From a phage, in NCBI GenBank assembly GCA_024790105.1, contig GCA_024790105.1_3053.1: a DNA stretch of 64,000 bases. One strand, written 5' to 3'. A program made the position numbers and the translations under genes. Under the pieces are notes generated by a model, which did not search any database, was not told the origin of the DNA, and saw only the letters and a list, made by a program, of their open reading frames with translations. Below are positions 5,599-44,571 of this stretch, piece after piece; positions within the stretch are counted from its first letter, which is position 1; the number at the start of each line of letters is the position of its first letter.

Positions 5599-6285
5599 TT
5601 AAAAATCGTGGGTAGAATCAGCTTCAAGAGCTACTACATAATTCGCGTGTTCACCTTCAAATTTAGCAGCGCCTTGTTTACCTTTTGCCCAAAGCAGAAG
5701 TTTATAATTTCCTGGTTGCATTTTCATATTTGCCATATTGATAATGAAATTAAATGTATTTTCACCATCATAATCACCAAGAGTCAAAGAATATTTAACA
5801 CGGGTAAGAGCAGAATCTTCTACTTTATTAAAACCGTTAATTACGATTTTACCTTCTTTTACCGTGATAGCAATTGTATCAATTTGCAGACCACGAGATA
5901 CACGCAATAGTTGTTGAAGGTCTTCAGCTTTAATTTCAGTAACAACAGATGCTACCGGGAATGGAATTGGTTTATTAGGAGCAACTACTGTACTCGGATC
6001 GGCTGCTGGCCAAAAAATTGTTGAACGAGCATCAGCAATTTTAATATTTCCATCTTCTGACTGGGAAATTTCTGCATCGTCATTAACTAGAGACAGAATA
6101 CCGAGAAAACCGTTCAAATCGTAAATTGCTACATCAAAATCAATAACGTCAGAAATATTTGCTTCCGCATAAGTTGTACCATTAACTGCGCGAGTCATAA
6201 TAAATTGACCAGATTTAAGCATAATGCCAGAGTTAATAGTAGCGAAATTTTTCAAAATATTCAGTGTGTCTTTAGATAATTTCAT
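5599..6285 (-). CDS. 45: Sliding clamp gp45
   Basis: 228 aa, same length as T4 gp45 and sequence matches as recalled. Confidence 0.95.
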   Translation of the reverse strand: MKLSKDTLNILKNFATINSGIMLKSGQFIMTRAVNGTTYAEANISDVIDFDVAIYDLNGFLGILSLVNDDAEISQSEDGNIKIADARSTIFWPAADPSTVVAPNKPIPFPVASVVTEIKAEDLQQLLRVSRGLQIDTIAITVKEGKIVINGFNKVEDSALTRVKYSLTLGDYDGENTFNFIINMANMKMQPGNYKLLLWAKGKQGAAKFEGEHANYVVALEADSTHDF

Positions 6286-7169
6286 TTCAATTTCCTATTT
6301 ACATAATAGTTAGACCAGGACCGTACAGCACCCTGATAAGATTCGTCGTTAAACCCATTAGCTACTGCAATTTTACGAAATTTATTATAACTCGGTTTTC
6401 CGTAAGCATGCCATAAAGATTTTAATTCATCTTCATGTTCAATCCAAGTTCCTCTAGCTTTAGATTTTCTAAATTTTGATTTGAATTCCGGTAAATTATT
6501 TCTAACAGTTGCTTGAATTGAAGCTCTCTGTCTTCTTTCAGCATTATTCCATAATTCTTTTTGAGATTTAGAAATTTTTGATCTTACACTTTCTGAATTC
6601 ATTATATCACTAAACTTTTTAGCATAACTACAATCAAGATATTTCAATTTCATCTTATTTGAGAGTTTAAGCTTTTTCTCATCGGTCCAGTGATTCTTCA
6701 TTGAATTAGATATTTTGTATTTTACCTCAGAACTATGTTTGTAACCTTTACGAATACCGACATACTCAGGCGTAATTTCAGATTGCGAAAGCTTTACAAT
6801 TTTTCCAGTTAAAACATTTTTATATGTTCCATATCCTTTAGCACCAATTAAAGTATTTTCATCCGCGTATGCTTTATTAAAATATTTTATATTACTTTTT
6901 GCTTTAACTTTTAATTGAAAAAATCTTTCCAATTTTCTTGGATCTAATATAGTTTCAGCTAAAATTTTGACGGTATATTTAGTGGTTTTAATAAGCTCAA
7001 AATATTCATCACTATAACTAGATGACACGCTTCCAGTATAAATCTTTCCAGCTGAATCAATTATATTTGTTCCATCGAAAATTGCGTTAATTTTTGAACC
7101 TATATAATAACACGGAAAAATATTTTTAGCTTCCCGCTCTGGAAAGCTAATAAGATATACTAAATTCAT
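6282..7169 (-). CDS. Seg-like homing endonuclease (degenerate GIY-YIG N-terminus, NUMOD3-like repeats)
   Basis: N-terminal VYLI...YYIGS pattern; C-terminal K/R-rich repeats of the S-x-x-K-I-S type; inserted between rpbA and 45 with 4-nt overlaps. Confidence 0.5.
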
Positions 7170-7807: not shown

Positions 7808-8524
7808 ATGAATTATAAACTAATTTATGAAAAGTTAATATCTAATGCTAAATCTCGAAAACTTGATTGCTATACTGAATCTCATCACATTATACCGCGC
7901 TGTTTAAATGGAAGTGATGATGCTTCAAACTTAGTAGATTTAACACCAGAAGAGCACTATGTAGCTCATCAACTTTTAGTAAAAATTTATCCTTCTGAAC
8001 CAAAATTAGTCTATGCTGCTAACATGATGACAGTTTCTACGAAATACGCTAAACGCAACAATAAAACTTTCGGTTGGATTCGTCGTAAACTCTGGGAAAT
8101 AGAAAAGAACAAAGAATTCTCCCAGGAGACACGAAAGAAAATGTCTGATGCAGTAGCTAATAAAGCAAGACTAACTTGTCCTCATTGCGGTAAGTCTGGA
8201 TTAAGCGGGAATATGAATCGTTGGCATTTTGATAACTGCCCAAATCACCCTAATCCTAAAGTTAGACCACCAATGTCTAAAGAACACAGAAATAATATCT
8301 CAAACGGGCTTAAAGCAATCGTTCTTGAAGAAACATCCTGCGAATTCTGCGGAATGATAGGCAAGAAATGCGTTATCGCAGCGCATAGAAATTTCTGCAA
8401 GAAAAATCCAAATGGACGCAAGAAAACTGAAAAGACTGGTACTTGCGTCCATTGCGGTAAAGTTACCACTTTCGGAAATTTATCAAGGTGGCATAATGAT
8501 AACTGTAAATATAAACCTAGCTAA
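7808..8524 (+). CDS. HNH homing endonuclease with three C-terminal Cys-rich repeats
   Basis: HNH core ESHHIIPRCLNGSDDASNLVDLTPEEHYVAH; three repeats of C-x2-C-G-K...RWH-x-DNC; opposite strand to the surrounding early operon. Confidence 0.75.
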   Translation: MNYKLIYEKLISNAKSRKLDCYTESHHIIPRCLNGSDDASNLVDLTPEEHYVAHQLLVKIYPSEPKLVYAANMMTVSTKYAKRNNKTFGWIRRKLWEIEKNKEFSQETRKKMSDAVANKARLTCPHCGKSGLSGNMNRWHFDNCPNHPNPKVRPPMSKEHRNNISNGLKAIVLEETSCEFCGMIGKKCVIAAHRNFCKKNPNGRKKTEKTGTCVHCGKVTTFGNLSRWHNDNCKYKPS

Positions 8525-15684: not shown

Positions 15685-15900
15685 TTAAATTTCCCAATTA
15701 CCATTTTCATCAATAAATTTAATCCAGTCATTTACTGACCACTTAGTTGTATCGCCTTTTGGAGTAGCATTTAAAGTATATAGCCCTTGCTTAAAAAGCA
15801 TTCGTTTGGTATTCATATTTTCCTCAGCTGTAACGATAGCACTCGTTTGATTTACGTTTAGCAACTCGTTGAGAAATATTATAATCAAAATCATCGTCAA
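15685..15900 (-). CDS. Hypothetical small membrane protein
   Basis: 71 aa with N-terminal hydrophobic helix. Confidence 0.35.
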   Translation of the reverse strand: MTMILIIIFLNELLNVNQTSAIVTAEENMNTKRMLFKQGLYTLNATPKGDTTKWSVNDWIKFIDENGNWEI

Positions 15901-16322: not shown

Positions 16323-16352
16323 ATAATACCACAGTTTGAGCTTGTTGTAAAC
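16323..16352 (-). promoter_or_regulatory. T4 early-type promoter cassette
   Basis: Reverse complement GTTTAC - 18 nt - TGGTATTAT; A/T-rich UP region. Confidence 0.5.
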
Positions 16353-16424
16353 AACTTTGTGAAAATTATTTTAGGGAATGATAAGAAGGGAACGATAGCT
16401 TAGAATGGTAATATACAGAATGTG

Positions 16425-16447
16425 AGAAAGAAAGGCCCAGAGGGCCC
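16425..16447 (-). terminator. Stem-loop terminator after nrdH
   Basis: GGGCCCTCTGGGCC hairpin followed by a T-rich tract on the minus transcript. Confidence 0.45.
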
Positions 16448-16450
16448 GTC

Positions 16451-17391: not shown

Positions 17392-17862
17392 TTAATCATG
17401 TTTCCACACCCCATCGGTATTTGACCAAAGTCGCTGATTATCTGATCCTCGCCACAGCTTTTTAGTCGGAAGATTTTTCTCATACTTCCCATCAATAATA
17501 ACATCAACATATTTAAGCATTTCTAGTTGTTTAATATCCTCAAACTTATATCCTGTCCACAACCAAATGCTTTTATTTGGATAAAGATTTTTTACTGTTT
17601 GAACAATGCAATGAATAACATCTCGGTTATCAGGATAGAGAGGGTCTCCTCCAGTTATAGTCAATCCTTCTATATAATCATTATTCAAACATTCAATTAA
17701 TTGTTCCAGTGTTTCACCAGTGAATGGAACGCCATTTCTAGCATTCCATGTTGATTTATTATAACACCCTTCGCATTTATGCAAACAACCAGTAACGAAA
17801 AGAACTGTCCTGCATCCAGGACCATTAACAAAGCAGCACGGGTATATTCTGTCATAATTCAT
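17392..17862 (-). CDS. nrdG: Anaerobic ribonucleotide reductase activating enzyme NrdG (radical SAM)
   Basis: 156 aa; Cys motif C-x3-C-x2-C near N-terminus; T4 length. Confidence 0.9.
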   Translation of the reverse strand: MNYDRIYPCCFVNGPGCRTVLFVTGCLHKCEGCYNKSTWNARNGVPFTGETLEQLIECLNNDYIEGLTITGGDPLYPDNRDVIHCIVQTVKNLYPNKSIWLWTGYKFEDIKQLEMLKYVDVIIDGKYEKNLPTKKLWRGSDNQRLWSNTDGVWKHD

Positions 17863-18691
17863 TTATATATTTCCAATTATAGCCTTCAACACTTTTACGT
17901 TCGCCATTTAAACATTTTAAAATATTTCCTTTGCTAGAAATATTAAAATATTTTGCTGCGTCTGGTATATAATTAAATGTTTTTAAAAGAACACCATCTT
18001 TATATGCGCCAAATAAATTAAGAGTATATTTTTCTCGAAGACGCTGATGTTTCCTTTTCATAACCTCAGGATTTGCATACGCCAACTTCAATGAATTTCT
18101 GTGTTTTTCTTTTACTTCAGGTTTTTGCATTGCTAACTTAGTTAGCCTGGAAATTTTATTTCTAACTTCGTCAGTTTTCATTGCATTTGACAAATTTAAT
18201 AAAGTTTTATTTCTAACTTCAGGTTTTTGCATTGCTAACTTAGTTAGTTCTCTATGTCTTTTTCTAAAATCGTCATCCTTCCATATATTTTTCGATAATT
18301 TTGACATAGAGCGGTGAAATAATTCCTTTTCACTGGAATACAATTTAAAAATTTCATCCAATTCATCCGCATTAAATCTATCGGTATTCGAGTTTATCAT
18401 TCTATGAAAGGCATAACACATTTTACTATTGCTTGTTTTAGCTAAATAGTAATGAGCTAACGCATGGTCATAATATGACAAATTAACAATATTCCATTTA
18501 TCTGTTTTATATTCAGGAAATATAGATTTGGGAAGCACGTGATGTGCTTCCGTTTTTCCTTTTATTTTAGGATTATTATAATTTTTTGTTATCAAATCAA
18601 CATATGACAATAGTAAATCATTATTTTCTTCAAATATTAAAGATAATTTATCATTCACAAAATCGCAAGGATAAAATCTATCATAATTCAT
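17852..18691 (-). CDS. HNH homing endonuclease (MobD-like)
   Basis: HNH-type His motif AHHVLPKS...YYDHALAH; C-terminal NUMOD-like repeats; located between nrdD and nrdG. Confidence 0.7.
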   Translation of the reverse strand: MNYDRFYPCDFVNDKLSLIFEENNDLLLSYVDLITKNYNNPKIKGKTEAHHVLPKSIFPEYKTDKWNIVNLSYYDHALAHYYLAKTSNSKMCYAFHRMINSNTDRFNADELDEIFKLYSSEKELFHRSMSKLSKNIWKDDDFRKRHRELTKLAMQKPEVRNKTLLNLSNAMKTDEVRNKISRLTKLAMQKPEVKEKHRNSLKLAYANPEVMKRKHQRLREKYTLNLFGAYKDGVLLKTFNYIPDAAKYFNISSKGNILKCLNGERKSVEGYNWKYINEL

Positions 18692-20004: not shown

Positions 20005-21049
20005 CAAATTCATGCCCGTTTATATGAAACGACAAAATTTGGATAGTCCATAGATATGCAACGTTCTTTTATAGTGCTAGGATGAAAATTTAGCGCTTTA
20101 GCTGCTTCTATATAAGACGTATACTTAATACCGTCAACAACCACATATTCAGGAACTTTATGAATAGTAGTCTTAATACTCAAAACAAGAGGATGAGTTT
20201 CGACTTCACTTTCAGTGCAATTTAAATATTCCGCTGCTTTTTTAAAACTTCTAAAAGTTTTATTTTTAAGCTTTATCGATACTTGTTTTTTACTTTTTCG
20301 ACTATTGATATTATTTTGCACATGTTCCTTAGATCTTCTGTTTTTAGCATAATATTCAGCCACAGAAGATTTTATATTGTTTTTATGAGATTCGGATAAC
20401 ACTTTACCCTTATGAGCATCTCTTAATTTTTGAATATGTTCTTCAGTATCCGGATGCTTATAAAACTTTTTACCGCCTATGGATTTATTTAAACATTTTT
20501 TGCTATAAAAATATTTACGTATGACCTCTTCTTCATGTTTTAATGCATCTTTATAACTATCAAATGTTTTTAAAATTATCCATTTAGTAGGTGTATCAGT
20601 TTTTAAGCGTTCATTTATATACTTAGATGACGTTGTGTAAGTTTTCCAGTTTGTGGGCTTGTTTTTAACTGTTCTAAATTTTTTATAACCGATATAAATG
20701 TCGCCATTAGAAAACTTAACTAAGTATGTAAATGCGTCTTTATCTTTTATTTTAGTACAACGTCTTTTTATCCATTTCATTGTTTCACCTCGTATTCATA
20801 AGATAATCTTATTTATACAAGATGACTGCTGCATGTCGCCATGCAGATTAGACTATATCTTCATCTTTCGATGCCGGCCGTTTCGAATAGCATTAGCTTC
20901 TATTCTACACCGCTACATTCATCACGGTTAGTCGTTAGGCATTTAGTTCAAAAGAACATTTAGCACGGGATTGTCTACTAGAGAGGTTCCCCGTTTAGAC
21001 CGGTTTTACATGAGCCTGAATTAAATTAACTCATACGCCTGGAATGCAT
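20005..21049 (-). mobile_element. Group I self-splicing intron in nrdD (approximate boundaries) carrying a homing endonuclease ORF
   Basis: NrdD reading frame is split into 181-aa and 443-aa pieces separated by about 1 kb containing a GIY-YIG ORF and a GC-rich structured segment at 20780-21020; matches T4 nrdD intron arrangement. Confidence 0.75.
20010..20780 (-). CDS. Intron-encoded GIY-YIG homing endonuclease (I-TevII-like)
   Basis: 256 aa; N-terminal GDIYIGY motif; inside nrdD intron; TATAAATA late promoter on minus strand at 20810-20817. Confidence 0.8.
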   Translation of the reverse strand: MKWIKRRCTKIKDKDAFTYLVKFSNGDIYIGYKKFRTVKNKPTNWKTYTTSSKYINERLKTDTPTKWIILKTFDSYKDALKHEEEVIRKYFYSKKCLNKSIGGKKFYKHPDTEEHIQKLRDAHKGKVLSESHKNNIKSSVAEYYAKNRRSKEHVQNNINSRKSKKQVSIKLKNKTFRSFKKAAEYLNCTESEVETHPLVLSIKTTIHKVPEYVVVDGIKYTSYIEAAKALNFHPSTIKERCISMDYPNFVVSYKRA

Positions 21050-23578: not shown

Positions 23579-23735
23579 TTTTAATCCAAAATATTATTAG
23601 GCATTGGTTGAACACTCACAAGTTCTTTAAAGAACTCAGTAGAGTCAGGCAATTTAACCATTTCCGGAGCATGCTTACTGAATTTATGTTTACATTGACG
23701 GCATTTATATTCAAGCTCTGGTTTACGCCAGTTAA

Positions 23736-24584
23736 TCAATTGAACTTGTTCAGCACCGCATTCAGGGCAATTAGGAACGTTTTTAGAAGCTCTTCAATTT
23801 GCTTATTAAAATAATCAATTTGTTCAGAATGTTTTTCATTACTACGAACTGGTACAGGTTTTGTAGGCAATTTAATTGAACTGGATTCATCCGGGCGATA
23901 AATTAAAATACAACTTGAACCAATAGGGCATTTTGCACTAGATGAATATTCTAATGTTCCGGCTTCTTTTAAAATTTCAAAAGCTAAACAGAGATGATGA
24001 CCCATATTGGCATAATCTGTAGAGTGAGCTCTAACGTAATAATCATCTCCACGAGTGCTAAATTTAAAGCATTTAAGGTCTTCTGTATTATTAGTTTTAA
24101 AAATCATTTGTTTATCTAGACCTTTAGCCAATCGAGCACCTAATGCTAATAATCGTCGTTGATTTTCCCACAAATCCGCAATCATTTGATCGAATGACAA
24201 TTTCGGCATTAGTCGACCATAAAGGTCGTATCCTTTATTATAATTGCGAAGGATTTCACTCGCGTTAATACGAGACAATGCTCCAATTTTATTAAGGGCT
24301 TTCATAATGCGATTAGATAAACTCATTCCAGATCCGTTTGTTCGCTGTAAATGTTTTTCTAATCCAAATCCAATATCAACTTTAAACTTATCTAAAATTT
24401 CGGCATGAACATCTTTATCAATAACATTCAAATCCAAAGTTGGGTTAAATCTATGAAAAAATTTATCTGGCTCTCCACGACGAAGTACAGTCCATTCATT
24501 CATCATTTTCTTATTAACTAAAGATTTAATTACTGCATTGACATTATTAATTACTACTGACATATTTTCCTCACTCAATTTCAA
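23736..24584 (-). CDS. Hypothetical protein
   Basis: 282-aa ORF, no motif recognised. Confidence 0.45.
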   Translation of the reverse strand: MKLSEENMSVVINNVNAVIKSLVNKKMMNEWTVLRRGEPDKFFHRFNPTLDLNVIDKDVHAEILDKFKVDIGFGLEKHLQRTNGSGMSLSNRIMKALNKIGALSRINASEILRNYNKGYDLYGRLMPKLSFDQMIADLWENQRRLLALGARLAKGLDKQMIFKTNNTEDLKCFKFSTRGDDYYVRAHSTDYANMGHHLCLAFEILKEAGTLEYSSSAKCPIGSSCILIYRPDESSSIKLPTKPVPVRSNEKHSEQIDYFNKQIEELLKTFLIALNAVLNKFN

Positions 24585-25561: not shown

Positions 25562-25588
25562 TTTTGTTCCTCCGTAGTTGATAGTTGT

Positions 25589-25618
25589 ATAGTACCACAG
25601 AGGAACGGTCTTGTAAAC
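25589..25618 (-). promoter_or_regulatory. T4 early-type promoter cassette
   Basis: GTTTAC - 18 nt - TGGTACTAT on minus strand. Confidence 0.5.
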
Positions 25619-25620
25619 AA

Positions 25621-25935
25621 CTAAAAGAAACTTCTTTCACAATTTTTTCCACTGAACCAAGCGCTCACTGCTTTCTTAGTCTCAGGAGCCGTGTTATCCA
25701 TAAACCACTCAAAGGCAGCCTTTTTATGATTCTGGAGAGCTTCTCGGGCTTTAATCTGCTCACGGTCTATTAACACTAACATATGAGCCTTTCTTGTCAC
25801 CAGGGGCTTCTTATGATTCTTGGAGTATTCCCAGTCATTTGTCCATCGCATTGTTGTTGCGAATTGAAGCACAGCTTCTTTAATCTTAGTTTCGTAAATT
25901 TCACGAGCCTTTGAGTATAACATCATTACCTCCAT
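25621..25935 (-). CDS. Hypothetical protein
   Basis: 104-aa ORF. Confidence 0.4.
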   Translation of the reverse strand: MEVMMLYSKAREIYETKIKEAVLQFATTMRWTNDWEYSKNHKKPLVTRKAHMLVLIDREQIKAREALQNHKKAAFEWFMDNTAPETKKAVSAWFSGKNCERSFF

Positions 25936-26025
25936 TCACCAGTTTAATTCTAGTCATCTTTTTAATGGCAGTCCATATAATCTATTTCTGAACTGCCTTT
26001 TTGTCTTAGAAGGCCTCTTATGAAT

Positions 26026-27006
26026 TTATTTCAGAAGAGTAACCTCAGCGATTTCTTGCCAACCGTTTTTGTCGGTCATAATAAAGTCAGCAAGATAAAG
26101 TGCAGTACGCAGTGAAACATTGCGTAAACGATTAACATTGACTTTCATCCATGATAATGCTTTATAAGTTTCTTCATCAGAAAGACCGCGCTTTTGCATC
26201 ATGTCAGTTGAAAGAATAACATCTTCAACCCTGACCATAATTTCTTCATTAGTGTGAACACCCAAATCCAAATAAACTGAGCGGGACACTAATGCTTGTA
26301 AATGTGGAGCAAGTTTAGTACCACGGTCTAATTCGCGGTCAATGTCAACGTTTGTGATAAAAACAATCGTTCCTTTAAATTCAAACTCACGCTCAATGCC
26401 TTTTTCTTCTAAGTAAGAAGATGCGGTGCTCCAGCAGACTTTACGGGTCTCTCCAGTGTCCAGAGCAGCTTTTAGAAGATTAAGAATGTCCATATCAGAG
26501 AAAACATCCACATCGTCAATCAAAAGGACAGAATTCTCTTCACGATTATTCCAGAGTTGTTCATAAAGACCGATACCGGAGATTTTACCGTTAATGCTTT
26601 TATATTCAATGTATCCAATATCATTTGCTTTATTTAAAGCTTTATCTAAAGAATACGTTTTACCAATACCCGCCGCACCAGAGATAATTAATGAACGAAT
26701 GTTTCCGTTAATAATACCATTCGTCATCATTCCCATAACATTAAATCTTTTATTAATGCGGGTTTTCATATCTTCATATGATTCTTTAACTTCTTCAACT
26801 TTTACACCATCATATGAAATGTCTGATTTGTAAACCCAAACACCGCGACGCTTACCGTCAATTTCAACAAAAACTTTACCATCTCCTTGTGCATCTACCG
26901 GAGCATTATCTGGGAACCATTCACCTAAGAGCTCAAAAGTTCCAGAGATTTCTTTACCGAAGTAGATACCCTTATTGATAGTTACAGTTTTCATTTTATT
27001 CTCCAA
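26026..27006 (-). CDS. P-loop ATPase of unknown function
   Basis: Walker A GAAGIGKT and Walker B LLIDDVD; N-terminus MENKM fused to the cassette leader. Confidence 0.6.
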   Translation of the reverse strand: MENKMKTVTINKGIYFGKEISGTFELLGEWFPDNAPVDAQGDGKVFVEIDGKRRGVWVYKSDISYDGVKVEEVKESYEDMKTRINKRFNVMGMMTNGIINGNIRSLIISGAAGIGKTYSLDKALNKANDIGYIEYKSINGKISGIGLYEQLWNNREENSVLLIDDVDVFSDMDILNLLKAALDTGETRKVCWSTASSYLEEKGIEREFEFKGTIVFITNVDIDRELDRGTKLAPHLQALVSRSVYLDLGVHTNEEIMVRVEDVILSTDMMQKRGLSDEETYKALSWMKVNVNRLRNVSLRTALYLADFIMTDKNGWQEIAEVTLLK

Positions 27007-27031
27007 ATCTGTATCAGTAGTTGATAGTTGT

Positions 27032-27061
27032 ATAGTACCATAAAGCTTTATGCTTGTAAAC
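27032..27061 (-). promoter_or_regulatory. T4 early-type promoter cassette
   Basis: GTTTAC - 18 nt - TGGTACTAT. Confidence 0.5.
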
Positions 27062-27084
27062 AGTTTTGTGAAAAAATTTTTGAA

Positions 27085-27112
27085 ATAAAAAGGGGGACCT
27101 CTAGGGCCCCCT
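27085..27112 (-). terminator. Stem-loop terminator upstream of promoter cassette
   Basis: AGGGGGCC...GGTCCCCCT hairpin followed by T-tract on minus transcript. Confidence 0.55.
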
Positions 27113-27120
27113 TTATGCTT

Positions 27121-27621
27121 TTATTCCATTTCTATTATATGCATGTTCTTTTTGCTATCAAAATATATGTTTTTAACTGTTAACTCCGAATTAATTGGCA
27201 ATAAAAACTCTCTTTCATAATCTACCATACAAAGGTTATCATAAAGCTTGTTAAGCTTATCATCATCAGTTTGGCCAGATTCTTCAATTGCGATTAAATT
27301 TTCTAAAATGTCAATCATAGCAGTTGAATAGTCAAAAACGTTTGCATTTTTTAACACTACTAAAACATTAGTCATATAGCGTTCTGCAGCAAACGTTTCA
27401 GCTATATGAGACTCACTGCTAAAGGAAGTTATTCTTTTAAATTTGATTCTCCTATTAACTTCAAACTTATGAGATAGTACTTCCTCTATTGTAAGTCCTC
27501 TAAAAAGCACGTCTTTAATCTCAAGTTTGTCTTTAATGTAATCATTAACACGCTTATGATTAAAATCATTAATTTTGTTGCCAAGGCATTTCATTAAAAT
27601 ATGCATTGTGTTTCTCTTCAA
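27121..27621 (-). CDS. Hypothetical protein
   Basis: 166-aa ORF bounded by cassettes on both sides. Confidence 0.45.
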   Translation of the reverse strand: MKRNTMHILMKCLGNKINDFNHKRVNDYIKDKLEIKDVLFRGLTIEEVLSHKFEVNRRIKFKRITSFSSESHIAETFAAERYMTNVLVVLKNANVFDYSTAMIDILENLIAIEESGQTDDDKLNKLYDNLCMVDYEREFLLPINSELTVKNIYFDSKKNMHIIEME

Positions 27622-27653
27622 TTTTTAAAGAACAATTAATTAACTACAAATAT

Positions 27654-27683
27654 ATTATAATATGCTTTATGATAGAAGTAAAC
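27654..27683 (-). promoter_or_regulatory. T4 early-type promoter cassette
   Basis: GTTTAC - 18 nt - TATAAT. Confidence 0.5.
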
Positions 27684-27707
27684 AACTTTGTGAAAAATTT
27701 TTGAAAT

Positions 27708-27731
27708 AAAAAAGGGAGCCCGAAGGCTCCC
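27708..27731 (-). terminator. UUCG-loop stem-loop terminator
   Basis: GGGAGCC-cgaa-GGCTCCC followed by T6 on minus transcript. Confidence 0.55.
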
Positions 27732-27733
27732 TA

Positions 27734-28612
27734 TCATTTATAATAACTTCGGTGGTTTTCAAGATAGACCTTCTCAAGGAAGTCATCCCAGAAACTCATG
27801 TCTACTTTTTGCTGCATACCGTTCTTAGAAGCTTCAGTAGATGCTGCTTCTACTTGATCGACCACATCTTCCAAAAACTCTTGAACTGTTTTAAATGGAT
27901 GTTTACCCAACTTCACGTCGAGAATAAATGGAGCGTCTTGAAGTGGATAAACCAAGTCACCAGTTTTGTAAATTTCCAATAGTTGAAGTCCACCACGACA
28001 AGCATGGCTCAGAGCTTTCCAGTCGATGCCTTCATTGGCTTCGGCCTTACGAGCGCGTTCACCATATTCAGCATTTAATTTGTTCAGTGACTGCTTAAGC
28101 TCAATAAGAGAAAGCGTTGTCTGATATTTACGACCCAACACAGTGTAGAACGTTTGTGGGCCTGTTTTCTCATGATTATGGAACACCCATTCACAGAATT
28201 CGTTTTCTGGAAGACGATGCTTAATATCTTCAACTTTAGTGCGACGCTGCTTAATGGAACCGTCTTCTTGGTAATCAACCCATTGCTCGGGGATTTGATT
28301 AACTACTTTCAATACATCACGTAATGCAGCCAAACGAGAACCCTTGACACCGTATTTAGAAGCTTGCTTGCGGACATATCCTAAATATGATTTCATGTTA
28401 GTCGTATAAAAACGAGAACGGTTGTCTTGAATAAACTTCCACACATCAGGCAAATCAGATTTAACCACTAGTTCAGGTGGAGTGTGAAGCATATCCAATG
28501 CTGCAGTTTCACCATCTGCTGCTAATTTAAAGAAATACTTAAGACTATACAATTCGTGGTCAATATCATCTTTAGTGTTTTTAGATGATGTGTTGTTAGT
28601 GTTTTTACTCAT
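27734..28612 (-). CDS. Hypothetical protein
   Basis: 292-aa ORF, no motif recognised. Confidence 0.45.
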   Translation of the reverse strand: MSKNTNNTSSKNTKDDIDHELYSLKYFFKLAADGETAALDMLHTPPELVVKSDLPDVWKFIQDNRSRFYTTNMKSYLGYVRKQASKYGVKGSRLAALRDVLKVVNQIPEQWVDYQEDGSIKQRRTKVEDIKHRLPENEFCEWVFHNHEKTGPQTFYTVLGRKYQTTLSLIELKQSLNKLNAEYGERARKAEANEGIDWKALSHACRGGLQLLEIYKTGDLVYPLQDAPFILDVKLGKHPFKTVQEFLEDVVDQVEAASTEASKNGMQQKVDMSFWDDFLEKVYLENHRSYYK

Positions 28613-28727
28613 GTGCTCTTTGACGTTTCCGATAAGAATATCGCGAGCAGGAGGAACAAAAATTTCTTTAAAATCTACATCAGATTCTGGGGTAGAAGTT
28701 CCATAAAGATGACTACCAAAATAAGAC

Positions 28728-28916
28728 TTAACTACTCCACCTAATCATTTCAAGATATTGAACTAACTTAGCTTTAGATTTATCCAAATCCTTTTTAGCT
28801 GCTTCTATACCGTCGTATGAATATCCTTCACAATGCTCAACTGCTAATTGATATGAATCTATTTCAATATCACGTGCTAATTTAATGATTTTTTCAAACT
28901 GTTCGCATGTTAGCAT
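28728..28916 (-). CDS. Hypothetical small protein
   Basis: 62-aa ORF. Confidence 0.35.
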   Translation of the reverse strand: MLTCEQFEKIIKLARDIEIDSYQLAVEHCEGYSYDGIEAAKKDLDKSKAKLVQYLEMIRWSS

Positions 28917-28918
28917 AC

Positions 28919-29137
28919 TTAAACTCTCGTATTATGATCGATAATTTCATCAAGAAACATATCTAACGCTTCTAAAGCATTATCAACTTTAGCTTCAAAT
29001 TCTTCAATACCTGATAAGGCAAAGTTAATGCGCTCCTCATCTGCTTTACGAATTAAAGCTACCAATTCCTTAATTTTATCAGCTTGTTCGATACTAATCA
29101 TTATTCCACCACATATGAAAGAGAGAATATTGCACAC
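28919..29137 (-). CDS. Hypothetical small protein
   Basis: 72-aa ORF. Confidence 0.35.
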
Positions 29138-29334
29138 GCCATGTGAGTTGCAACTTCATCACACATATTATAACGTTTCTTAAGAAGTTCTACAAGTTCT
29201 TCACTAGTAACTTCATCCATGTCGACGAAAAAATCACCATTAATGATGACGTAGATATTTCCTTCTTGATTGAGTGCTTCAATTTTCATGATGTTCTCCT
29301 CTTTATCCGATAGTTGTATAGTACCACAGCTCAA
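29101..29334 (-). CDS. Hypothetical small protein
   Basis: 77-aa ORF directly downstream of promoter cassette. Confidence 0.35.
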
Positions 29335-29347
29335 ACGGAAAGTAAAC
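29318..29347 (-). promoter_or_regulatory. T4 early-type promoter cassette
   Basis: GTTTAC - 18 nt - TGGTACTAT. Confidence 0.5.
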
Positions 29348-29358
29348 CGGTAAAATGA

Positions 29359-29379
29359 AAAAAGTCTCCCGAAGGAGAC
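29359..29379 (-). terminator. UUCG-loop stem-loop terminator
   Basis: GTCTCC-cgaa-GGAGAC followed by T5 on minus transcript. Confidence 0.55.
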
Positions 29380-29384
29380 TAATG

Positions 29385-29771
29385 TTATTCGAGGGAAAGA
29401 AGATACTTACTCTGGTAAAACATTCCAGTAATATCATCTATCGTGCTTTGAATGGCTGGAGGCATTTCTTTATAAATGCTGTTAGATTGGTCTAGTATGT
29501 GATCAATCATTTTAATTGTGTCGGTAGGAAGTTTACTGGCATCTGGAATTGAAGGTGTGTATTTTCTACCAGAATACCCCAAATATTGCTCACCAAATTT
29601 ATCAATCAAATCTGGCAACTCGGAGAAAATAAAATCGTATGCTTTGTGTCTAGCATAACTTTTAGTTTCAAAATGTGCAGAATGAAAATAAGCTTGTGCA
29701 GCCATTAATAAACCTAAGTATTCATCTGCCTTTGAAGGTTTTCCACTTTGTGAAAAGTCGCTGAATTTCAT
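29385..29771 (-). CDS. Hypothetical protein (rI.-1 position)
   Basis: 128-aa ORF upstream of rI. Confidence 0.4.
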
Positions 29772-33516: not shown

Positions 33517-33546
33517 ATTATACCACAGTCAAGAGGAAAAGTAAAC
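33517..33546 (-). promoter_or_regulatory. T4 early-type promoter
   Basis: GTTTAC - 18 nt - TGGTATAAT (extended -10) upstream of regB. Confidence 0.55.
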
Positions 33547-34676: not shown

Positions 34677-35606
34677 TCAATTAGAAAATAAATTTATCCA
34701 AGATTGTTCTTTAATTAAAAATGGCTCAGAATCATATGCCATTAAACTCTGTGTGATTAGTCCTTTAAAAGGCCCATCAATAAATTCCATGGTAAAATAT
34801 GGAATTTTATTCATTAGCCGTGCATTAGGAGCAGTACACAAAACTCTGCATCCTTTGAATACGCCTTTTTGTAATTTGTATTGCTTGGGATAAAATTCGC
34901 TTAAAATGTTGTTATTTGCCAAAATTTCAAAATGATTCACCAATTTATTTTTAATAGTTTTTGGCGAAAAATAAAGATATTCGAAAAGCTGAGTGTCTGT
35001 CATCATTGCATTCCGATTACGAAAAAACTGTGGACGAGTAATACCACCAATACAACATTTAATATTACAGCAGCAGTGTACAGTGTCAATATGGACACTA
35101 TAAATCTTATCCATATCAGGAGATTTGACAGGCTCATCAATTATATACAAAATTCGCGAAAGCGATAAACCTCTGAACTTGCTTCCTTTATTACCAATAA
35201 AACTGCGCACAGAATCAGTAAATAAACGAAAACGTATATCATCATTAGAATAACGCGAAAATTCCTTTTTAATGTTATTTGCAGAAATTTTAGCGTAAGC
35301 TGAAGTATTAGAAAGAACAATAACTGTTCCACCGTCATACAACCAATTAGCGGCAAAATTAGTTACTGCAATTGATTTACCGGATTGACGTCCACCATCT
35401 ATACGAAGTGTGCAGTACTGTTTAAGTAATTCTTCAAATGGTGGGATATAATCGTTTTTACAAATTTCTTCTACTCTAGCGTCAGAATGGTGTGTAAAAG
35501 CATTCATCAGGGATAGATAAGGACCAGTTAAAAATGTTCTCATTTTATTCTCTCTAAATTTGGGCCATTCCATGGCGCATGAATTGTCCATTTCTGTATT
35601 TACCAC
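34677..35606 (-). CDS. P-loop NTPase of unknown function
   Basis: Walker A GGRQSGKS and Walker B-like LYIIDE; Cys cluster HCCCNIKCC; occupies region where T4 has vs.7/denV. Confidence 0.5.
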
Positions 35607-35623
35607 TCCAAGTAATTATGAAT

Positions 35624-35653
35624 ATACTATCACAATTCTAGGAGAAAGTAAAC
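35624..35653 (-). promoter_or_regulatory. T4 early-type promoter cassette (downstream flank of ipII)
   Basis: GTTTAC with A/T -10 region; near-identical to copy at 36020-36049. Confidence 0.45.
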
Positions 35654-35655
35654 TG

Positions 35656-35958
35656 TTATTTATCTTTAATTACTTTAGCTGCTTCGATAGCCGCTTGCTG
35701 AAGGTCATCCATAGACATACCGAATTTAGAAGCAAAGTTATCAATTTTCTTTTCGACAGCATTCAAAGGCTTGGCCTGTTTACCTTCATTAGCGCCAGGA
35801 AGAGCGAGAATACGCTCTTTGTCAATATAAAGGCTTACAAGTTTCTTACGGTCTTTATCGGACAAATCATGAAATGAATGGGCCTTTTTATTTATAGCGG
35901 CTTCTAATTTACCTGCACTCACTCGCGCTTCAGTAATAAATTCTTGATATGTTTTCAT
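35656..35958 (-). CDS. ipII: Internal protein II-like (capsid-targeted)
   Basis: 100 aa; N-terminal MKTYQEFITEA capsid targeting sequence typical of T4 internal proteins. Confidence 0.7.
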   Translation of the reverse strand: MKTYQEFITEARVSAGKLEAAINKKAHSFHDLSDKDRKKLVSLYIDKERILALPGANEGKQAKPLNAVEKKIDNFASKFGMSMDDLQQAAIEAAKVIKDK

Positions 35959-36019
35959 ATGTTTCCTTTAAATGTAAATATTTTAATTGGTAATTGACTG
36001 TTCAAATAACTGTGAATAT

Positions 36020-36049
36020 ATATTATCACAATTCTAGGAGAAAGTAAAC
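36020..36049 (-). promoter_or_regulatory. T4 early-type promoter cassette (upstream flank of ipII)
   Basis: GTTTAC - 18 nt - TAATAT. Confidence 0.45.
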
Positions 36050-36053
36050 AACT

Positions 36054-39455: not shown

Positions 39456-39556
39456 AGTATTTCCTTAGGTTAATTGAGATTTAAAATCCGTAGGAGTATA
39501 ATACTCTATCGTCAAATTATAGGCTCATAATATCTCAATCATGAGCCTGTGTAAAC

Positions 39557-39863: not shown

Positions 39864-39893
39864 ATAGTACCATGGAAGAACAGGGATGTAAAC
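39864..39893 (-). promoter_or_regulatory. T4 early-type promoter cassette
   Basis: GTTTAC - 18 nt - TGGTACTAT. Confidence 0.5.
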
Positions 39894-40022
39894 AGTTTTG
39901 TGAAAAATTTTTTAAAAAGTTTTGGGGAATTCTAGGGCAAGGAGGGGAAATCAAAGGATAGGATAATATATTATAAAGGGTAGAAACTAAATGATGCCTA
40001 GAGAGGCCTGGAAAGGCCTAGA

Positions 40023-40058
40023 TACCAAAAAGCCCCAACCTTTTGGTCGGGGCTAAGA
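40023..40058 (-). terminator. Rho-independent terminator (copy 1 of 36-bp direct repeat)
   Basis: AGCCCCGACC-aaaa-GGTTGGGGCT hairpin followed by T5 on minus transcript. Confidence 0.6.
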
Positions 40059-40061
40059 ATG

Positions 40062-40535
40062 TTATTTGATTTGTTTAGCAGACCAAATGCGGTCTTTAAT
40101 AATTTTTTGGATGTCTTCAACATACTCTAGGTCATGAGCATGTGGGTTATCTTTAAAGCTATGAGCACGAGCTAGCTTTTGGCCTTCAGTTTTGATTACT
40201 AAAAGCTCTTTAAGGATAGCTTCATATTTGGAGATAATTCCTTTAACGATATTTTTTTCTTGTGTGACTTTAGGATCTGCTTTAGGAGCAGGTTTACCCG
40301 AAGCCTTTGCAAAAGCAGCGCCAGTAGCAACTAAACTTTTCCAGGCCATACTAACTGCATTTCCCGTAAATCCTTCCGCTTTCATGTCGCGTGCGAACTG
40401 AAATCGCGATTCATTAGAAGCATCTTTGTAAGAATATTTACCCGCTGCAATGGCTGCTTTTGCAACAGCTTGAATTTCGGTGCTAGATGCTTCATTTAAC
40501 ACCGCTTCATTTAAAAATTGAGTATATGATTTCAT
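40062..40535 (-). CDS. Internal-protein-like protein with capsid targeting sequence
   Basis: 157 aa; N-terminus MKSYTQFLNEAVLNE resembles T4 IP capsid targeting sequence plus protease site; Ala/Lys-rich. Confidence 0.5.
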   Translation of the reverse strand: MKSYTQFLNEAVLNEASSTEIQAVAKAAIAAGKYSYKDASNESRFQFARDMKAEGFTGNAVSMAWKSLVATGAAFAKASGKPAPKADPKVTQEKNIVKGIISKYEAILKELLVIKTEGQKLARAHSFKDNPHAHDLEYVEDIQKIIKDRIWSAKQIK

Positions 40536-40580: not shown

Positions 40581-40616
40581 ATACCAAAAAGCCCCAACCT
40601 TTTGGTCGGGGCTAAG
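40581..40616 (-). terminator. Rho-independent terminator (copy 2 of 36-bp direct repeat)
   Basis: Identical hairpin and T5 as at 40023-40058. Confidence 0.6.
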
Positions 40617-40757: not shown

Positions 40758-40929
40758 CAAAAACGCTACTCGGCTTACGGCAAAGATATTTCCTCGAATC
40801 GATAATTCGGTGCGCCGTTTCTGCTGTGATATAAGGGGACATTAACAAAACATAAAGATTTGTTAATGCCAGTCCTTAAACAGGGAACATCAGTCCGACG
40901 ACTTACCGGTAGCGACCCGGCTTCTTGTT
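40758..40929 (-). ncRNA. Structured small RNA candidate
   Basis: ORF-free segment downstream of tRNA-Arg with 10-bp hairpin (CATTAACAAA/TTTGTTAATG). Confidence 0.3.
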
Positions 40930-41006
<77 letters not shown>

Positions 41007-41009
41007 TAG

Positions 41010-41675
41010 TTAAAATTTCATTTTTCGACCTTTAAACCATCCTTCTGGAATTGGGTCAGTTTTCTTAATACGTTTAGAAACTTTTTCATCTAATGAATGA
41101 ATCCACATCATGCCAAATTGGGAATTCTTTTCACCTTGTTGGTGTTTATTTCTGGCGTGAGATTCTTTCATTTTATTAATAGTTTCAGGAGTATGGGTCT
41201 TACCCAAGAAAGATTTAGTATTTAAAAATTTCTCTCTATACTTAGGATTATCCCAAAGCTGTTTAAACCTTTCTGAACCCATTTTACGATATTTTTCTTT
41301 AAGGTCTGGGTCGTTCTCAAATCTGGTTTTAAAAGCAGCAGCCCCTTTTAAGGAAGCTTCTTTCTTTTTATCCAAATATTCTTTAGTGTTTAAATGGTCC
41401 CAACCACCTTCACCACCTAATTTCAAATTATAAACATCAGGGCGCTTTAAAAACTCTTCAGTCACAATATTCTTTTCTGACTCAAACATAGAGGTTTTAT
41501 CGTCAAAGAACTCTAATATTTCTTTAGAGAAATTTTCTATACCATACTTGTCTTGGGCTCTTTTTAATAATTTACCAGAACCCATATATCCATCATCTAA
41601 ATTTTCGGTAGAATGAGCGCCTATATAGATTTTATTATTAATTTTATTTGTTATTTTATAAGTGTAATGGAACAT
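41010..41675 (-). CDS. segB: GIY-YIG homing endonuclease SegB-like
   Basis: 221 aa; N-terminal YTYKITNKINNKIYIGAHS GIY-YIG motif; located in the tRNA cluster as T4 segB. Confidence 0.8.
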   Translation of the reverse strand: MFHYTYKITNKINNKIYIGAHSTENLDDGYMGSGKLLKRAQDKYGIENFSKEILEFFDDKTSMFESEKNIVTEEFLKRPDVYNLKLGGEGGWDHLNTKEYLDKKKEASLKGAAAFKTRFENDPDLKEKYRKMGSERFKQLWDNPKYREKFLNTKSFLGKTHTPETINKMKESHARNKHQQGEKNSQFGMMWIHSLDEKVSKRIKKTDPIPEGWFKGRKMKF

Positions 41676-41716
41676 AAATATCTCCTATTTCTAAGAGTAT
41701 TTATGTTCCCAAAATA

Positions 41717-41788
41717 TGGCCCTGGGTGGAATTGAACCACCATCTGGCGATTATGAGTCGCTTGCTTGAACCTTCCAGCTACAGGGCC
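41717..41788 (-). tRNA. tRNA with CAU anticodon (Ile if C34 is lysidinylated, otherwise Met)
   Basis: Manual cloverleaf: acceptor GGCCCTG/CAGGGCC, anticodon loop CTCATAA, T-arm GTGGTTCAATTCCAC. Confidence 0.7.
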
Positions 41789-41794
41789 TTGATA

Positions 41795-41850
41795 TGCTGA
41801 TTGACGGAATCGAACCGCCGACATCCTCATTACAAGTGAGGTGCTCTACC
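41795..41850 (-). pseudogene. tRNA-Thr (UGU) 3' portion; 5' acceptor and D-stem replaced by HNH gene end
   Basis: Anticodon arm CCTCA-CTTGTAA-TGAGG, T-arm and 3' acceptor AATCAGC present; no complementary 5' acceptor strand; stop codon of HNH ORF overlaps D-arm. Confidence 0.5.
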
Positions 41851-42307
41851 ACGCTTCCGTTATTTTGTTTTTATATGCTCTATTCCTTGATTTATACGTA
41901 TCAAGTTGAGAGTCACAATTGGAACAAACAAATCTCAGATTTTCTAATCTATGGTCATTGTTTATTCCATTAATATGATCGAGAATTAAAGGCATTGGTT
42001 TGCCATTCCATACTGCTTCTATTCCACAGATAGAGCACTCATATGGTAATATTTTGTCTTCTATAAGTCTTTTTCTAAGATGGCTTCTGCCGTAAGAAGA
42101 ATTTTCAACCATTACATCACTAAGATTATATCTGTTGGTTTTTGGACCAGTCTTAAGTCCTTTATTCCAGATTTTGCAACCTTTTTGAGCTCCGGCTCCC
42201 TTCCCTCTCACATATTCAGCTTTATTTGGATTAAGTTTGCAATATTTTTCATGCACACTTTTTCCGCCAGCTTGTTTAAATTCTTTATTACAAAATTGAC
42301 AATTCAT
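41846..42307 (-). CDS. HNH homing endonuclease (inserted in tRNA cluster)
   Basis: 153 aa from ATG (MNCQFC); C-terminal HNH motif LDHINGINNDHRLENLRFVCSNCD; ORF track TTG extension rejected. Confidence 0.7.
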   Translation of the reverse strand: MNCQFCNKEFKQAGGKSVHEKYCKLNPNKAEYVRGKGAGAQKGCKIWNKGLKTGPKTNRYNLSDVMVENSSYGRSHLRKRLIEDKILPYECSICGIEAVWNGKPMPLILDHINGINNDHRLENLRFVCSNCDSQLDTYKSRNRAYKNKITEAW

Positions 42308-42323
42308 TATCTTCTCATTTAAT

Positions 42324-42400
42324 TGGGGTGACCGATGGGATTTGAACCTACGACATTCTGCTCCCAAAGCAGACGCTCTACCAAACTGAGCTACACGGAG
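42324..42400 (-). tRNA. tRNA-Pro (UGG)-like; 3' acceptor strand does not pair (possibly defective)
   Basis: Acceptor 5' CTCCGTG, D-arm GCTC/GAGC, anticodon arm TCTGC-TTTGGGA-GCAGA; T-stem has mismatch; 3' strand CGGTCAC not complementary to the 5' acceptor. Confidence 0.5.
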
Positions 42401-42412
42401 TAAATTAAATTT

Positions 42413-42484
<72 letters not shown>

Positions 42485-42490
42485 AAACTT

Positions 42491-42577
42491 TGGTACGAGA
42501 AGTGGGACTCGAACCCACAAGGAAATCATTCCGCAGCATTTTAAGTGCTGTGCCTTTACCAATTTGACCATTCTCGC
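42491..42577 (-). tRNA. tRNA-Leu (anticodon UAA), long variable arm, CCA encoded
   Basis: Acceptor GCGAGAA/TTCTCGT, anticodon arm CAGCA-CTTAAAA-TGCTG, T-arm GTGGG-TTCGAGT-CCCAC. Confidence 0.75.
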
Positions 42578-42583
42578 GTTATA

Positions 42584-43192
42584 TTATTTATTACGTGAAA
42601 AAGACTGTTCTATCAATTCTGGACACTTTCGTTCTATCCATTTTCTAGCTTTTTGTGGGCTTATACCTATTATTTTAGCAGCTTTACTAACCCATCCAAA
42701 TTTAGAATAATCGATTTTAACTAATTCTTCGTAAATTTCATCAGTTAAAATCTTTTCATTAATATTTACCAGTAAATGATATAATTTGTTATCATTAGCA
42801 ATTTTAATGAATCTTTTATAGTTTCCGCCTTTACTTAAACCTAATGAAGTAATTGCAGATGATATAGTAGCCGAATTTAATAATGCGTTTAAAATTTCTT
42901 CATCACTAACATTATAACGCTTTTTATTATTTTTAATATTTTTACCAGCAAAAGTATCAGTTTGCGAGTGACAGTTTGGACATAATAATCTTAAATTTGA
43001 TTTAAGATGATTTTTGTTATTTCCATCAATATGGTCTAATTGCAGAACAATATGCTTATTTTGCCATTTTGAAATTTTACAAATTGCACACTCATATGGA
43101 AAAATATTTTCTTTTATTATTTTGTCTTTCAGCTTTCCTGTGCTAAAATTTGGGTGTTTTCCTTCAAAAATTTCAGCTAATTTAGTATCCAT
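42584..43192 (-). CDS. HNH homing endonuclease with C-terminal helix-turn-helix-like domain
   Basis: HNH motif LDHIDGNNKNHLKSNLRLLCPNCH; paralogous core to ORF 41846-42307; start set at ATG (ORF track begins at upstream TTG). Confidence 0.7.
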   Translation of the reverse strand: MDTKLAEIFEGKHPNFSTGKLKDKIIKENIFPYECAICKISKWQNKHIVLQLDHIDGNNKNHLKSNLRLLCPNCHSQTDTFAGKNIKNNKKRYNVSDEEILNALLNSATISSAITSLGLSKGGNYKRFIKIANDNKLYHLLVNINEKILTDEIYEELVKIDYSKFGWVSKAAKIIGISPQKARKWIERKCPELIEQSFSRNK

Positions 43193-43302
43193 AATATGAT
43201 TCCCAATTATTAACAAAGGCTCTCAAGCAAGAACCCTTGATGATAGAGGGTATTAATCAGTGCGATATGAGTTAATAATAACAAATAATTCTTAAAGCAT
43301 AT

Positions 43303-43997: not shown

Positions 43998-44183
43998 TTA
44001 TTCACCTTTAGAAATTTTATCCATAACGATAGCAATTAAACCAATTAAAAATGCTACTACAAGTGAAAACACATTTTCTGCTGTAGTTAATAATCCACAT
44101 ATAAATCCAACAAACATTGAAAAACTAAAAGCGGAAGCAGAAATTGCAATAGCAACATTTCGAATTAATTCACAACGTTTCAT
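43998..44183 (-). CDS. Small membrane protein
   Basis: 61 aa, two hydrophobic helices; directly downstream of promoter cassette. Confidence 0.4.
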   Translation of the reverse strand: MKRCELIRNVAIAISASAFSFSMFVGFICGLLTTAENVFSLVVAFLIGLIAIVMDKISKGE

Positions 44184-44211
44184 TTTATTCTCCTCGGTAG
44201 TTGATAGGGTA

Positions 44212-44241
44212 ATAGTATCACAACTAAAACCCTATGTAAAC
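44212..44241 (-). promoter_or_regulatory. T4 early-type promoter cassette (downstream flank of ipI-like gene)
   Basis: GTTTAC - 18 nt - TACTAT, with -10 embedded in an inverted repeat. Confidence 0.5.
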
Positions 44242-44253
44242 AACTTTGTGAAA

Positions 44254-44511
44254 TTATTTTAAATCTTCTAATCGTTTCTTCATCTTAGAACCATTTTTAG
44301 CAATTTCTCCTGCATCGGAGCATAATGCTAAAAGTGCTTTAACTTTAGTTTGGTCTCCTTTAAAAGATGAAGGATCGACTGCAGCAGCAAGTTCTTTAAT
44401 ACGAGAGAAAAGACGCTCAGCTTCAGCTAAAGCCATTCCAAGCTTTACTTCCATGCCATGAGAAGATTCAGTAATAGTAGTTTTTGTAGCAAACTCTTTG
44501 AAAGTTTTCAT
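44254..44511 (-). CDS. ipI: Internal protein I-like (capsid-targeted small protein)
   Basis: 85 aa; N-terminus MKTFKEFATKTTITE resembles IP capsid targeting sequence; adjacent to 57B as T4 ipI. Confidence 0.55.
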   Translation of the reverse strand: MKTFKEFATKTTITESSHGMEVKLGMALAEAERLFSRIKELAAAVDPSSFKGDQTKVKALLALCSDAGEIAKNGSKMKKRLEDLK

Positions 44512-44541: not shown

Positions 44542-44571
44542 ATAGTATCACTACCTCATCAGTATGTAAAC
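44542..44571 (-). promoter_or_regulatory. T4 early-type promoter cassette (upstream flank of ipI-like gene)
   Basis: GTTTAC - 18 nt - TACTAT inside inverted repeat GATGAGGTA...TACCTCATC. Confidence 0.5.

Follow-up and report, generated by a model that had tools for sequence, protein, structure and literature searches.

Twelve T4-type early promoters in a phage genome as probable, occasional recombination linkers

We analyzed a 64,000-nucleotide (nt) stretch of phage DNA (NCBI GenBank assembly GCA_024790105.1, contig GCA_024790105.1_3053.1; hereafter the window), in which twelve copies of an early-promoter cassette are dispersed on the minus strand, several of them in a focal interval at positions 25562–29385. 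The original prediction likened these copies to the stem-loop plus early-promoter cassettes (PeSL) reported to shuffle genes in T4-type phages. Our analysis points to a more limited role: the cassettes are very probably sigma-70 early promoters of the T4/T2 type that are mostly inherited vertically and serve occasionally as opportunistic recombination linkers, rather than a dedicated mobile element. By its sequence matches, the window comes from a T2/T4-like Tequatrovirus, of which it covers the early region between gene 43 and gene 4. Approximately 700 Tequatrovirus records, among them T2, T4, and numerous phages of Escherichia, Shigella, and Salmonella, match the focal interval with 95–98% identity, and a 25-kb stretch of the window is likewise matched by Tequatrovirus records. 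The T4 map order is kept from gene 43 (878–3574) to genes 2/4, and plus-strand late baseplate genes begin at approximately 48 kb.

The motif GTTTAC-N15-T(A/G)N-TANNAT is present without mismatch, and with invariant spacing, at all twelve predicted minus-strand cores. Allowing at most one mismatch gives 17 matches compared with 1.43 ± 1.30 (maximum 5) in shuffled windows, and a relaxed scan (spacer of 14–16 nt, at most one mismatch) finds 18 sites on the minus strand and two on the plus strand, where approximately 2.3 are expected per strand. We additionally trained a position matrix solely on the cassettes of five relatives (T4, T2, IME537, N2, and G2133), the window copies being excluded. This profile, of the kind that the original prediction had called for, separates the twelve sites, which score 22.5–66.6 bits, from shuffled windows, in which the best score is 5.8, and no further site above shuffled scores was found with it on either strand of the whole 64 kb, including the late region at 48–64 kb. 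Because the matrix recovers the twelve and nothing else, the list of twelve is complete for the window. One-mismatch sites at 15878, 17758, 22604, 36129, 39527, and 46020 were left out, as their matrix scores do not exceed those of shuffled sequence; the site at 39527 adjoins a recurrent insertion point.

All twelve copies, which we denote by their lower coordinate (c728 and so forth), lie on the transcribed strand at 27–61 nt upstream of an ATG, in agreement with the predicted placement before start codons. The start proposed for the gene downstream of c35624 has to be shifted, as the GTG at 35606 lies within the GGAG Shine-Dalgarno sequence and translation more probably starts at the ATG at 35591. 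The homologous region of each of the five relatives contains 11–14 exact copies, all on the transcribed strand, and zero exact copies on the opposite strand. Ten of the twelve sites are syntenic with T4, where they precede imm.1, 55.6, nrdC.8, nrdC.10, mobD.5, regB, ipIII, e.8, trna.4, and ipI; orthology was set by motif plus synteny because promoters are not annotated in the T4 RefSeq and T4T records. An exact T4 counterpart is missing for c27654, which accompanies a modA-like gene, and for c35624. All copies but one are located between 55.6 and ipI, and none is found in the late region or in the gp62–gp47 replication core.

A+T content is 60–88% in the 25 nt upstream, TTTCACAAARYT precedes the core in seven copies, and the −35 element reads GTTTAC in all twelve. 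The predicted 18-nt spacer is indeed invariant; with TTTACW taken as the −35 element, it has the canonical length of 17 nt. The predicted −10 element, TGG-TA(C/T)(T/A)AT, is not universal: an extended −10 TG is present in 11 copies (TGG in seven and TGA in four), c27654 has TA instead, and the −10 elements of c35624 and c36020 are TAGTAT and TAATAT, respectively. Downstream, the leader ACAACTATC(AACTAC), that is ACAACTATCAACTAC, occurs in five copies and a GGAG Shine-Dalgarno sequence in eight, followed in the alignment by ATGAAA. The conserved alignment blocks (TTTCACAAARYT, GTTTAC, TG(G/A)TAYTAT, the leader, GGAG, and ATGAAA) reach well past the sigma-70 core, and pairs of cassettes share 32–92 nt of near-identity. 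The 15-nt spacers of c35624 and c36020 are identical, the leaders of c728, c27032, and c39864 are 64/65 to 78/89 identical, and 77 of 92 nt are common to c44542 and c44212.

Several copies had been predicted to follow a GC-rich terminator hairpin. A canonical hairpin with a T-run lies just upstream of c27032, c27654, and c29318, all within the focal interval; the other nine copies are without one. From sequence alone we assigned the copies to three classes. Class I consists of these three copies, in which the hairpin is followed by a 37–59-nt gap and the terminator T-run merges into the UP tract. The hairpin GGGGGCC-CTAGA-GGTCCCC plus T-run at 27093–27111 (minus strand; free energy [ΔG] −15.3 kcal/mol, z −1.5) ends the modA-like open reading frame (ORF) and precedes c27032 (27032–27061, minus strand; 60.9 bits), a full PeSL upstream of nrdC.10. 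Directly after the nrdC.11 stop, the hairpin AGGGAGCC-TTCG-GGCTCCCT with six T residues at 27713–27732 (minus strand; ΔG −16.6 kcal/mol, z −4.2) sends its T-run into the UP tract of c27654 (27654–27683, minus strand; 32.1 bits), which has the −10 element TATAAT without TG, lies upstream of the modA-like ORF, and is not present in T4. The third hairpin, AGTCTCC-TTCG-GGAGACT with five T residues at 29363–29380 (minus strand; ΔG −10.8 kcal/mol, z −3.4), follows the rI.-1 stop and precedes c29318 (29318–29347, minus strand; 57.8 bits), located upstream of mobD.5. Two of the three hairpins have C(UUCG)G tetraloops.

Class II comprises three minus-strand copies that are preceded by a 98–168-nt non-coding spacer folding with 0 to −2 kcal/mol: c728 (728–757; GTTTAC..TGGTACTAT; 57.3 bits), upstream of the imm.1 ortholog and syntenic with T4 L003:1052, has a C-rich spacer of 120 nt (758–877); c16323 (16323–16352; 59.4 bits), upstream of the 55.6 ortholog, has an unstructured spacer of 98 nt (16353–16450); and c39864 (39864–39893; 66.6 bits), upstream of e.8, has a spacer of 168 nt (39894–40061; C = 23 and G = 4 per 80 nt). 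These spacers are C-rich and G-poor, at the 97th–100th percentile of C minus G; they are candidates for rut-like, Rho-dependent terminators or may derive from hairpins that have eroded. The c39864 spacer holds GCCCTAGAATTCCCC, which resembles the arm of the c27032 hairpin and could be a degenerate remnant of it. In the six copies of Class III, also on the minus strand, the −35 element lies 2–12 nt past the upstream stop codon, and they are without a terminator because the −35 element follows that stop so directly. They are c25589 (25589–25618; 57.1 bits), upstream of nrdC.8 and starting 2 nt past the nrdC.9 stop; c33517 (33517–33546; 35.5 bits), upstream of regB; c35624 (35624–35653; 29.9 bits), upstream of a vs.8-like ORF; c36020 (36020–36049; 22.5 bits), the ortholog of the T4 ipIII promoter; c44212 (44212–44241; 62.9 bits), upstream of trna.4; and c44542 (44542–44571; 60.0 bits), upstream of the gene in the ipI slot.

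The clearest case of recombination within cassettes is the modA-like ORF at 27121–27606 (minus strand; 161 amino acids [aa]), a single-gene module between the two full cassettes c27654 and c27032. It resembles Alt/ModA-family ADP-ribosyltransferases (phrog_832, E = 9e-24); a Pfam search gave no match, whereas the PHROGs search matched phrog_832. The ORF is a second, short homolog of this family, located at the nrdC.10/nrdC.11 slot. Breakpoints surround it at 27095..27678 and 27006..27717, and the segment at 27095–27678, which holds the ORF plus one cassette, is absent from T4. There, the single nrdC.11/nrdC.10 junction is a precise chimera of the two window cassettes: the nrdC.11 stop and the GGGAGCC hairpin correspond to c27654, the spacer, −10 element, and leader correspond to c27032, and the crossover can be placed within approximately 39 nt common to both cassettes. 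In IME537, other ORFs (515 nt) occupy this slot. The modA-like ORF is present in 44 phage records, including T2, once in each, and nrdC.10 is present in 506.

Two slots for internal-protein genes vary in a similar manner. Between c36020 and c35624, the window encodes an internal virion protein of 100 aa (35656–35958, minus strand; phrog_7857, E = 8e-55), and this gene is replaced in all five relatives; T4 has ipIII, ipII, and denV in this ipII/III slot, and T2 has a different internal protein. The downstream edge of the slot is c35624, with a break at 35604. Between c44542 and c44212, the ipI slot holds an internal head protein gene of 85 aa (44254–44511, minus strand; phrog_3499, E = 1e-49) that is replaced in T4 and N2; breaks map to 44178–44259, and in IME537 additional sequence is inserted at c44212, with an overlap of 21 nt. 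Comparison of cassette-flanked ORFs with T4-type relatives thus finds three cassette pairs that bracket variable single-gene modules, and the junctions, as read from sequence, demonstrate exchange of a unit by apparent crossover for the modA-like gene and the two internal-protein slots. A third internal-protein-like ORF, at 40062–40535 (phrog_2280), begins with MKSYTQFLNEA, like the capsid-targeting leader of internal proteins. The 523-nt segment that contains it is absent from T4, T2, N2, and G2133 and is bounded by two copies (40022–40056 and 40581–40615) of a 35-nt terminator hairpin, TTAGCCCCGACCAAAAGGTTGGGGCTTTTTGGTAT (ΔG −23.8), with the late-promoter-like TATAAATA coming after the upstream copy. 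Among 555 related records, approximately 395 cover at least 80% of a 601-nt query composed of this ORF and the flanking hairpins.

Contigs in IMG/VR, of which only approximately eight carry the family-A signature and therefore provide qualitative junction evidence and not statistics, add further combinations. The same hairpin-promoter cassette is followed by different downstream genes right past ACAACTATCAA (L010 vs. L026), and "half" cassettes occur in which the hairpin is fused to the −10 element (L033 and L020). At the imm.1 promoter, these contigs show spacer alleles and downstream-gene alleles in all four possible pairings. The imm.1 promoter spacer of the window, ATCCCTGTTCTTCT, matches that of the e.8 promoter 39 kb away and not that of its T4 ortholog (AAGACTGTTCTTCC), a pattern pointing to ectopic conversion or to crossover inside cassettes. 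It is conceivable, if rather doubtful, that dispersed early promoters evolve in concert by ectopic gene conversion and form one tier of a "linker grammar" together with terminator-hairpin repeats and ATGAAAAC microhomology, with the C-rich spacers at c728, c16323, and c39864 possibly a Rho-dependent counterpart of the PeSL hairpin.

To relate cassettes to changes in gene content, we used colinear BLAST chains against the five relatives, which define 43 unique indel or replacement events at positions 1–48000. Under a uniform-position null, ten breakpoint ends fall in cassettes compared with 2.6 expected (P < 5e-5); we discounted this enrichment, since indels of whole genes necessarily end at gene boundaries and the uniform null is therefore uninformative. 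Several results weigh against a special role of the cassettes or limit how far it can be taken. Under a gene-boundary null, the enrichment is not significant either for ends (ten observed vs. 6.6 expected, P = 0.12) or for events (nine of 43 vs. 5.6 expected, P = 0.10), and the proportion of junctions broken is 6/10–11 for cassettes and 34–35/80–85 for other junctions (odds ratio 1.7–2.0, P = 0.24–0.30). Half of the cassettes (6/12) are without any break. The predicted recent acquisition of doubly flanked ORFs is overstated: the nrdC.9/nrdC.10 unit also has a copy on either side and yet is essentially invariant, being found in 500 of 506 records. Moreover, these comparisons span five relatives only, and initiation by host RNA polymerase is something that we infer from orthology and consensus.

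Cassettes are one of several indel routes in the region; most other indels are accounted for by homing-endonuclease genes, the duplicated terminator hairpin, and gene-start microhomology. Seven homing-endonuclease-like genes of the HNH, NUMOD, and GIY-YIG families are encoded in the window at 6282–7169 (−), 7808–8524 (+), 17852–18691 (−), 20010–20780 (−), 41010–41675 (−), 42584–43216 (−), and 50329–51195 (+). They are mostly absent at the same sites in T4 and T2, one is located inside nrdD, and the insertion at 17852–18691 is flanked by a duplication of approximately 41 nt of the nrdG 5′ end. Gene-start microhomology is exemplified by the mobD.2a–mobD segment, which occupies 1.7–2.3 kb in the five relatives and is missing from the window with a junction at approximately 28733–28745. 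Phage F13076 represents the clean product of this deletion by recombination between copies of a 14-nt gene-start repeat, AATAATGAAAACTG. The window has lost an additional 12 nt (ATAATGAAAACT) at this junction, which removes the nrdC.11 ATG, and because of this loss the 336-codon frame of this RlaP-like nucleotidyltransferase has no ATG, GTG, or TTG before Met45; nrdC.11 may thus be a pseudogene or N-terminally truncated. ATGAAAAC(T) starts many early ORFs and provides gene-start microhomology.

The focal interval contains nrdC.8, nrdC.9, nrdC.10, the ADP-ribosyltransferase-like ORF, which is of the T2 type and not found in T4, nrdC.11, three small mobD.3/.4/.5-like ORFs, and the end of rI.-1. 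The original description of the intervening ORFs as small and unrelated applies only in part, as nrdC.10 and nrdC.11 have 322 and 336 aa and the mobD.3-like and mobD.4 ORFs (28728–29101) are tandem paralogs that both belong to phrog_653. Elsewhere in the window, denV is missing between vs.8 and e (34677–36050), as in T2; four tRNA genes (Arg, Met, Gly, and Leu) are present at 40900–42600, compared with eight in T4; and vs.7 and vs.8 apparently form a single ORF of 309 aa, with tandem matches to two PHROG families. At 23581–23788, approximately 3.4 kb of T4, T2, IME537, and G2133 (roughly nrdC.2 to nrdC.6) is missing, and with it an early promoter that precedes nrdC.4; in N2 this position holds 1.2 kb.

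Lists of T4 early promoters were reportedly drawn up by Wilkens and Ruger and, in 2003, by Miller and colleagues. T4 early promoters have been described as "uber" promoters that combine UP, −35, TGn, and −10 elements with extra consensus regions (Hinton 2010, Virol J 7:289, PMC2988021). The window copies share these elements, the strand, and the gene context with T4 immediate-early promoters; they differ in nothing essential, apart from the unmatched c27654 and c35624 and spacer alleles such as that at imm.1. PeSLs were defined, together with a mini-circle model, in RB49/phi1 in work that already pointed to T-even internal-protein loci (Arbiol et al. 2010, PMC2839356), and PeSLs have also been described for nt-1/KVP40 (Comeau et al. 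2014, PMC4122927). The PST/T4 PeSL has the consensus TTTACW-N17-TAYWAT with a stem-loop just upstream and a Shine-Dalgarno sequence and start codon at its 3′ end (Comeau et al. 2014, PMC4122927). The consensus of the window copies is identical to this one, and the copies have an AT-rich upstream tract and the same 3′ end, lie in a hyperplastic region beside indels, and have "half" or degraded counterparts. The likeness to PeSLs has limits: the upstream stem-loop is present in only three of the twelve copies, breakpoint enrichment is not statistically significant, and ten copies are stable syntenic orthologs of T4 promoters. Polymorphism of T-even internal-protein loci, as Arbiol et al. (2010, PMC2839356) discuss it from Repoila et al. 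(1994), is matched by the genes at 35656–35958 and 44254–44511, exchanged between flanking early promoters that are conserved and an N-terminal targeting leader that is likewise conserved, whereas the ORF at 40062–40535 is bounded by the duplicated terminator hairpin, with the late-promoter-like sequence. The modA-like unit resembles a moron (Hendrix et al. 2000) in being one gene with its own promoter and terminator between two genes but is co-oriented with its neighbors and has homologous linkers on both sides. In contrast to integron gene cassettes, no integrase or attC-type site is known for T4-like phages, and none was searched for in the window.

It is unlikely that the copies are dedicated mobile cassettes, with PeSLs as the principal, targeted vehicle of gene shuffling by integron-like mini-circles and any doubly flanked ORF a recent arrival. 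This is the published model (Arbiol 2010; Comeau 2014); the modA-like unit, 622 nt long and lying between direct repeats, is exactly the product expected if mini-circles were excised or integrated, and inserted segments in relatives bring their own cassette copies. Yet ten of the twelve copies are stable orthologs of T4 promoters, breaks are not significantly enriched at cassettes, the modA-like ORF occupies one locus only and one place in each of its 44 records, and the doubly flanked nrdC.9/.10 unit does not vary. Equivalent indels arise through the duplicated hairpin or the 14-nt gene-start repeat, the seven homing-endonuclease genes explain many others, and no dedicated recombinase has been reported for T4-like phages, the window not having been searched for one. 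We consider it improbable, at the other extreme, that the copies are promoters and nothing else, their similarity being due to convergence under selection for contact with RNA polymerase and their co-location with indels accidental in so hyperplastic a region. In favor of this reading, the test at junction level falls short of significance, approximately 42% of all gene junctions break among the five relatives, and a strong consensus is expected at positions that contact the polymerase. However, similarity extends to positions without known polymerase contact (the spacers of c35624 and c36020 and the leaders of c728, c27032, and c39864), the chimera at the T4 junction is exact and has its crossover in shared sequence, and the four-gamete pattern at imm.1 and identical cassettes on different genes indicate exchange. 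That the matches arose by chance in A/T-rich DNA, or as an artifact of low complexity, can practically be dismissed: although a generic sigma-70 consensus scanner finds no excess at 20–40 kb (88 vs. 84 expected), the specific motif is very strongly over-represented, strand-exclusive, and conserved at syntenic sites in five relatives, which already refutes this explanation.

For the reading that we favor, early promoters that are mostly inherited and occasionally recombine, the following sequence of events can be proposed. Each copy would function as an "uber" promoter, composed of a UP tract (TTTCACAAARYT), −35 (G)TTTACW, a 17-nt spacer, TGn, and TAYWAT, followed by a short leader, GGAG, and ATG, at which host sigma-70 RNA polymerase would initiate approximately 7 nt past the −10 element immediately after infection. 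The GGAG sequences are probable RegB cleavage sites, as an annotation note for T4 regB suggests. Class I copies, in which the U-tract of an intrinsic terminator would merge into the UP tract, would be true PeSLs and make the unit transcriptionally insulated; Class II promoters are preceded by a long, unstructured C-rich spacer; and Class III promoters, abutting the upstream stop, would add transcription to read-through. Most copies would be inherited vertically as orthologs of mapped T4 promoters. Because pairs share 32–92 nt of near-identity, the very active homologous recombination of T4 would occasionally cross over within copies and thereby add, remove, or swap a promoter-plus-gene unit. 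T4 recombination can use tracts in the 32–92-nt range, according to Singer et al. (1982) as cited in Arbiol (2010).

The feature is of a known kind in a known lineage and matters little beyond annotation. At the level of sequence, the analysis establishes the identity of the copies with T4 early promoters, their strand and positions, the three predicted terminators, and the chimeric junctions; what it adds is the three-class anatomy, the precise chimeric junction at the modA-like module, and a test for enrichment that came out negative. It also cautions that a flanking pair of cassettes does not by itself predict recent acquisition; in this region, changes in gene content are owed at least as often to homing endonucleases and other short repeats as to the cassettes. 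For an unannotated T4-like genome, the catalog places twelve predicted early transcription starts and three predicted terminators, and it flags the nrdC.10/.11, ipII/III, and ipI slots for exchange of host-takeover or anti-defense genes.

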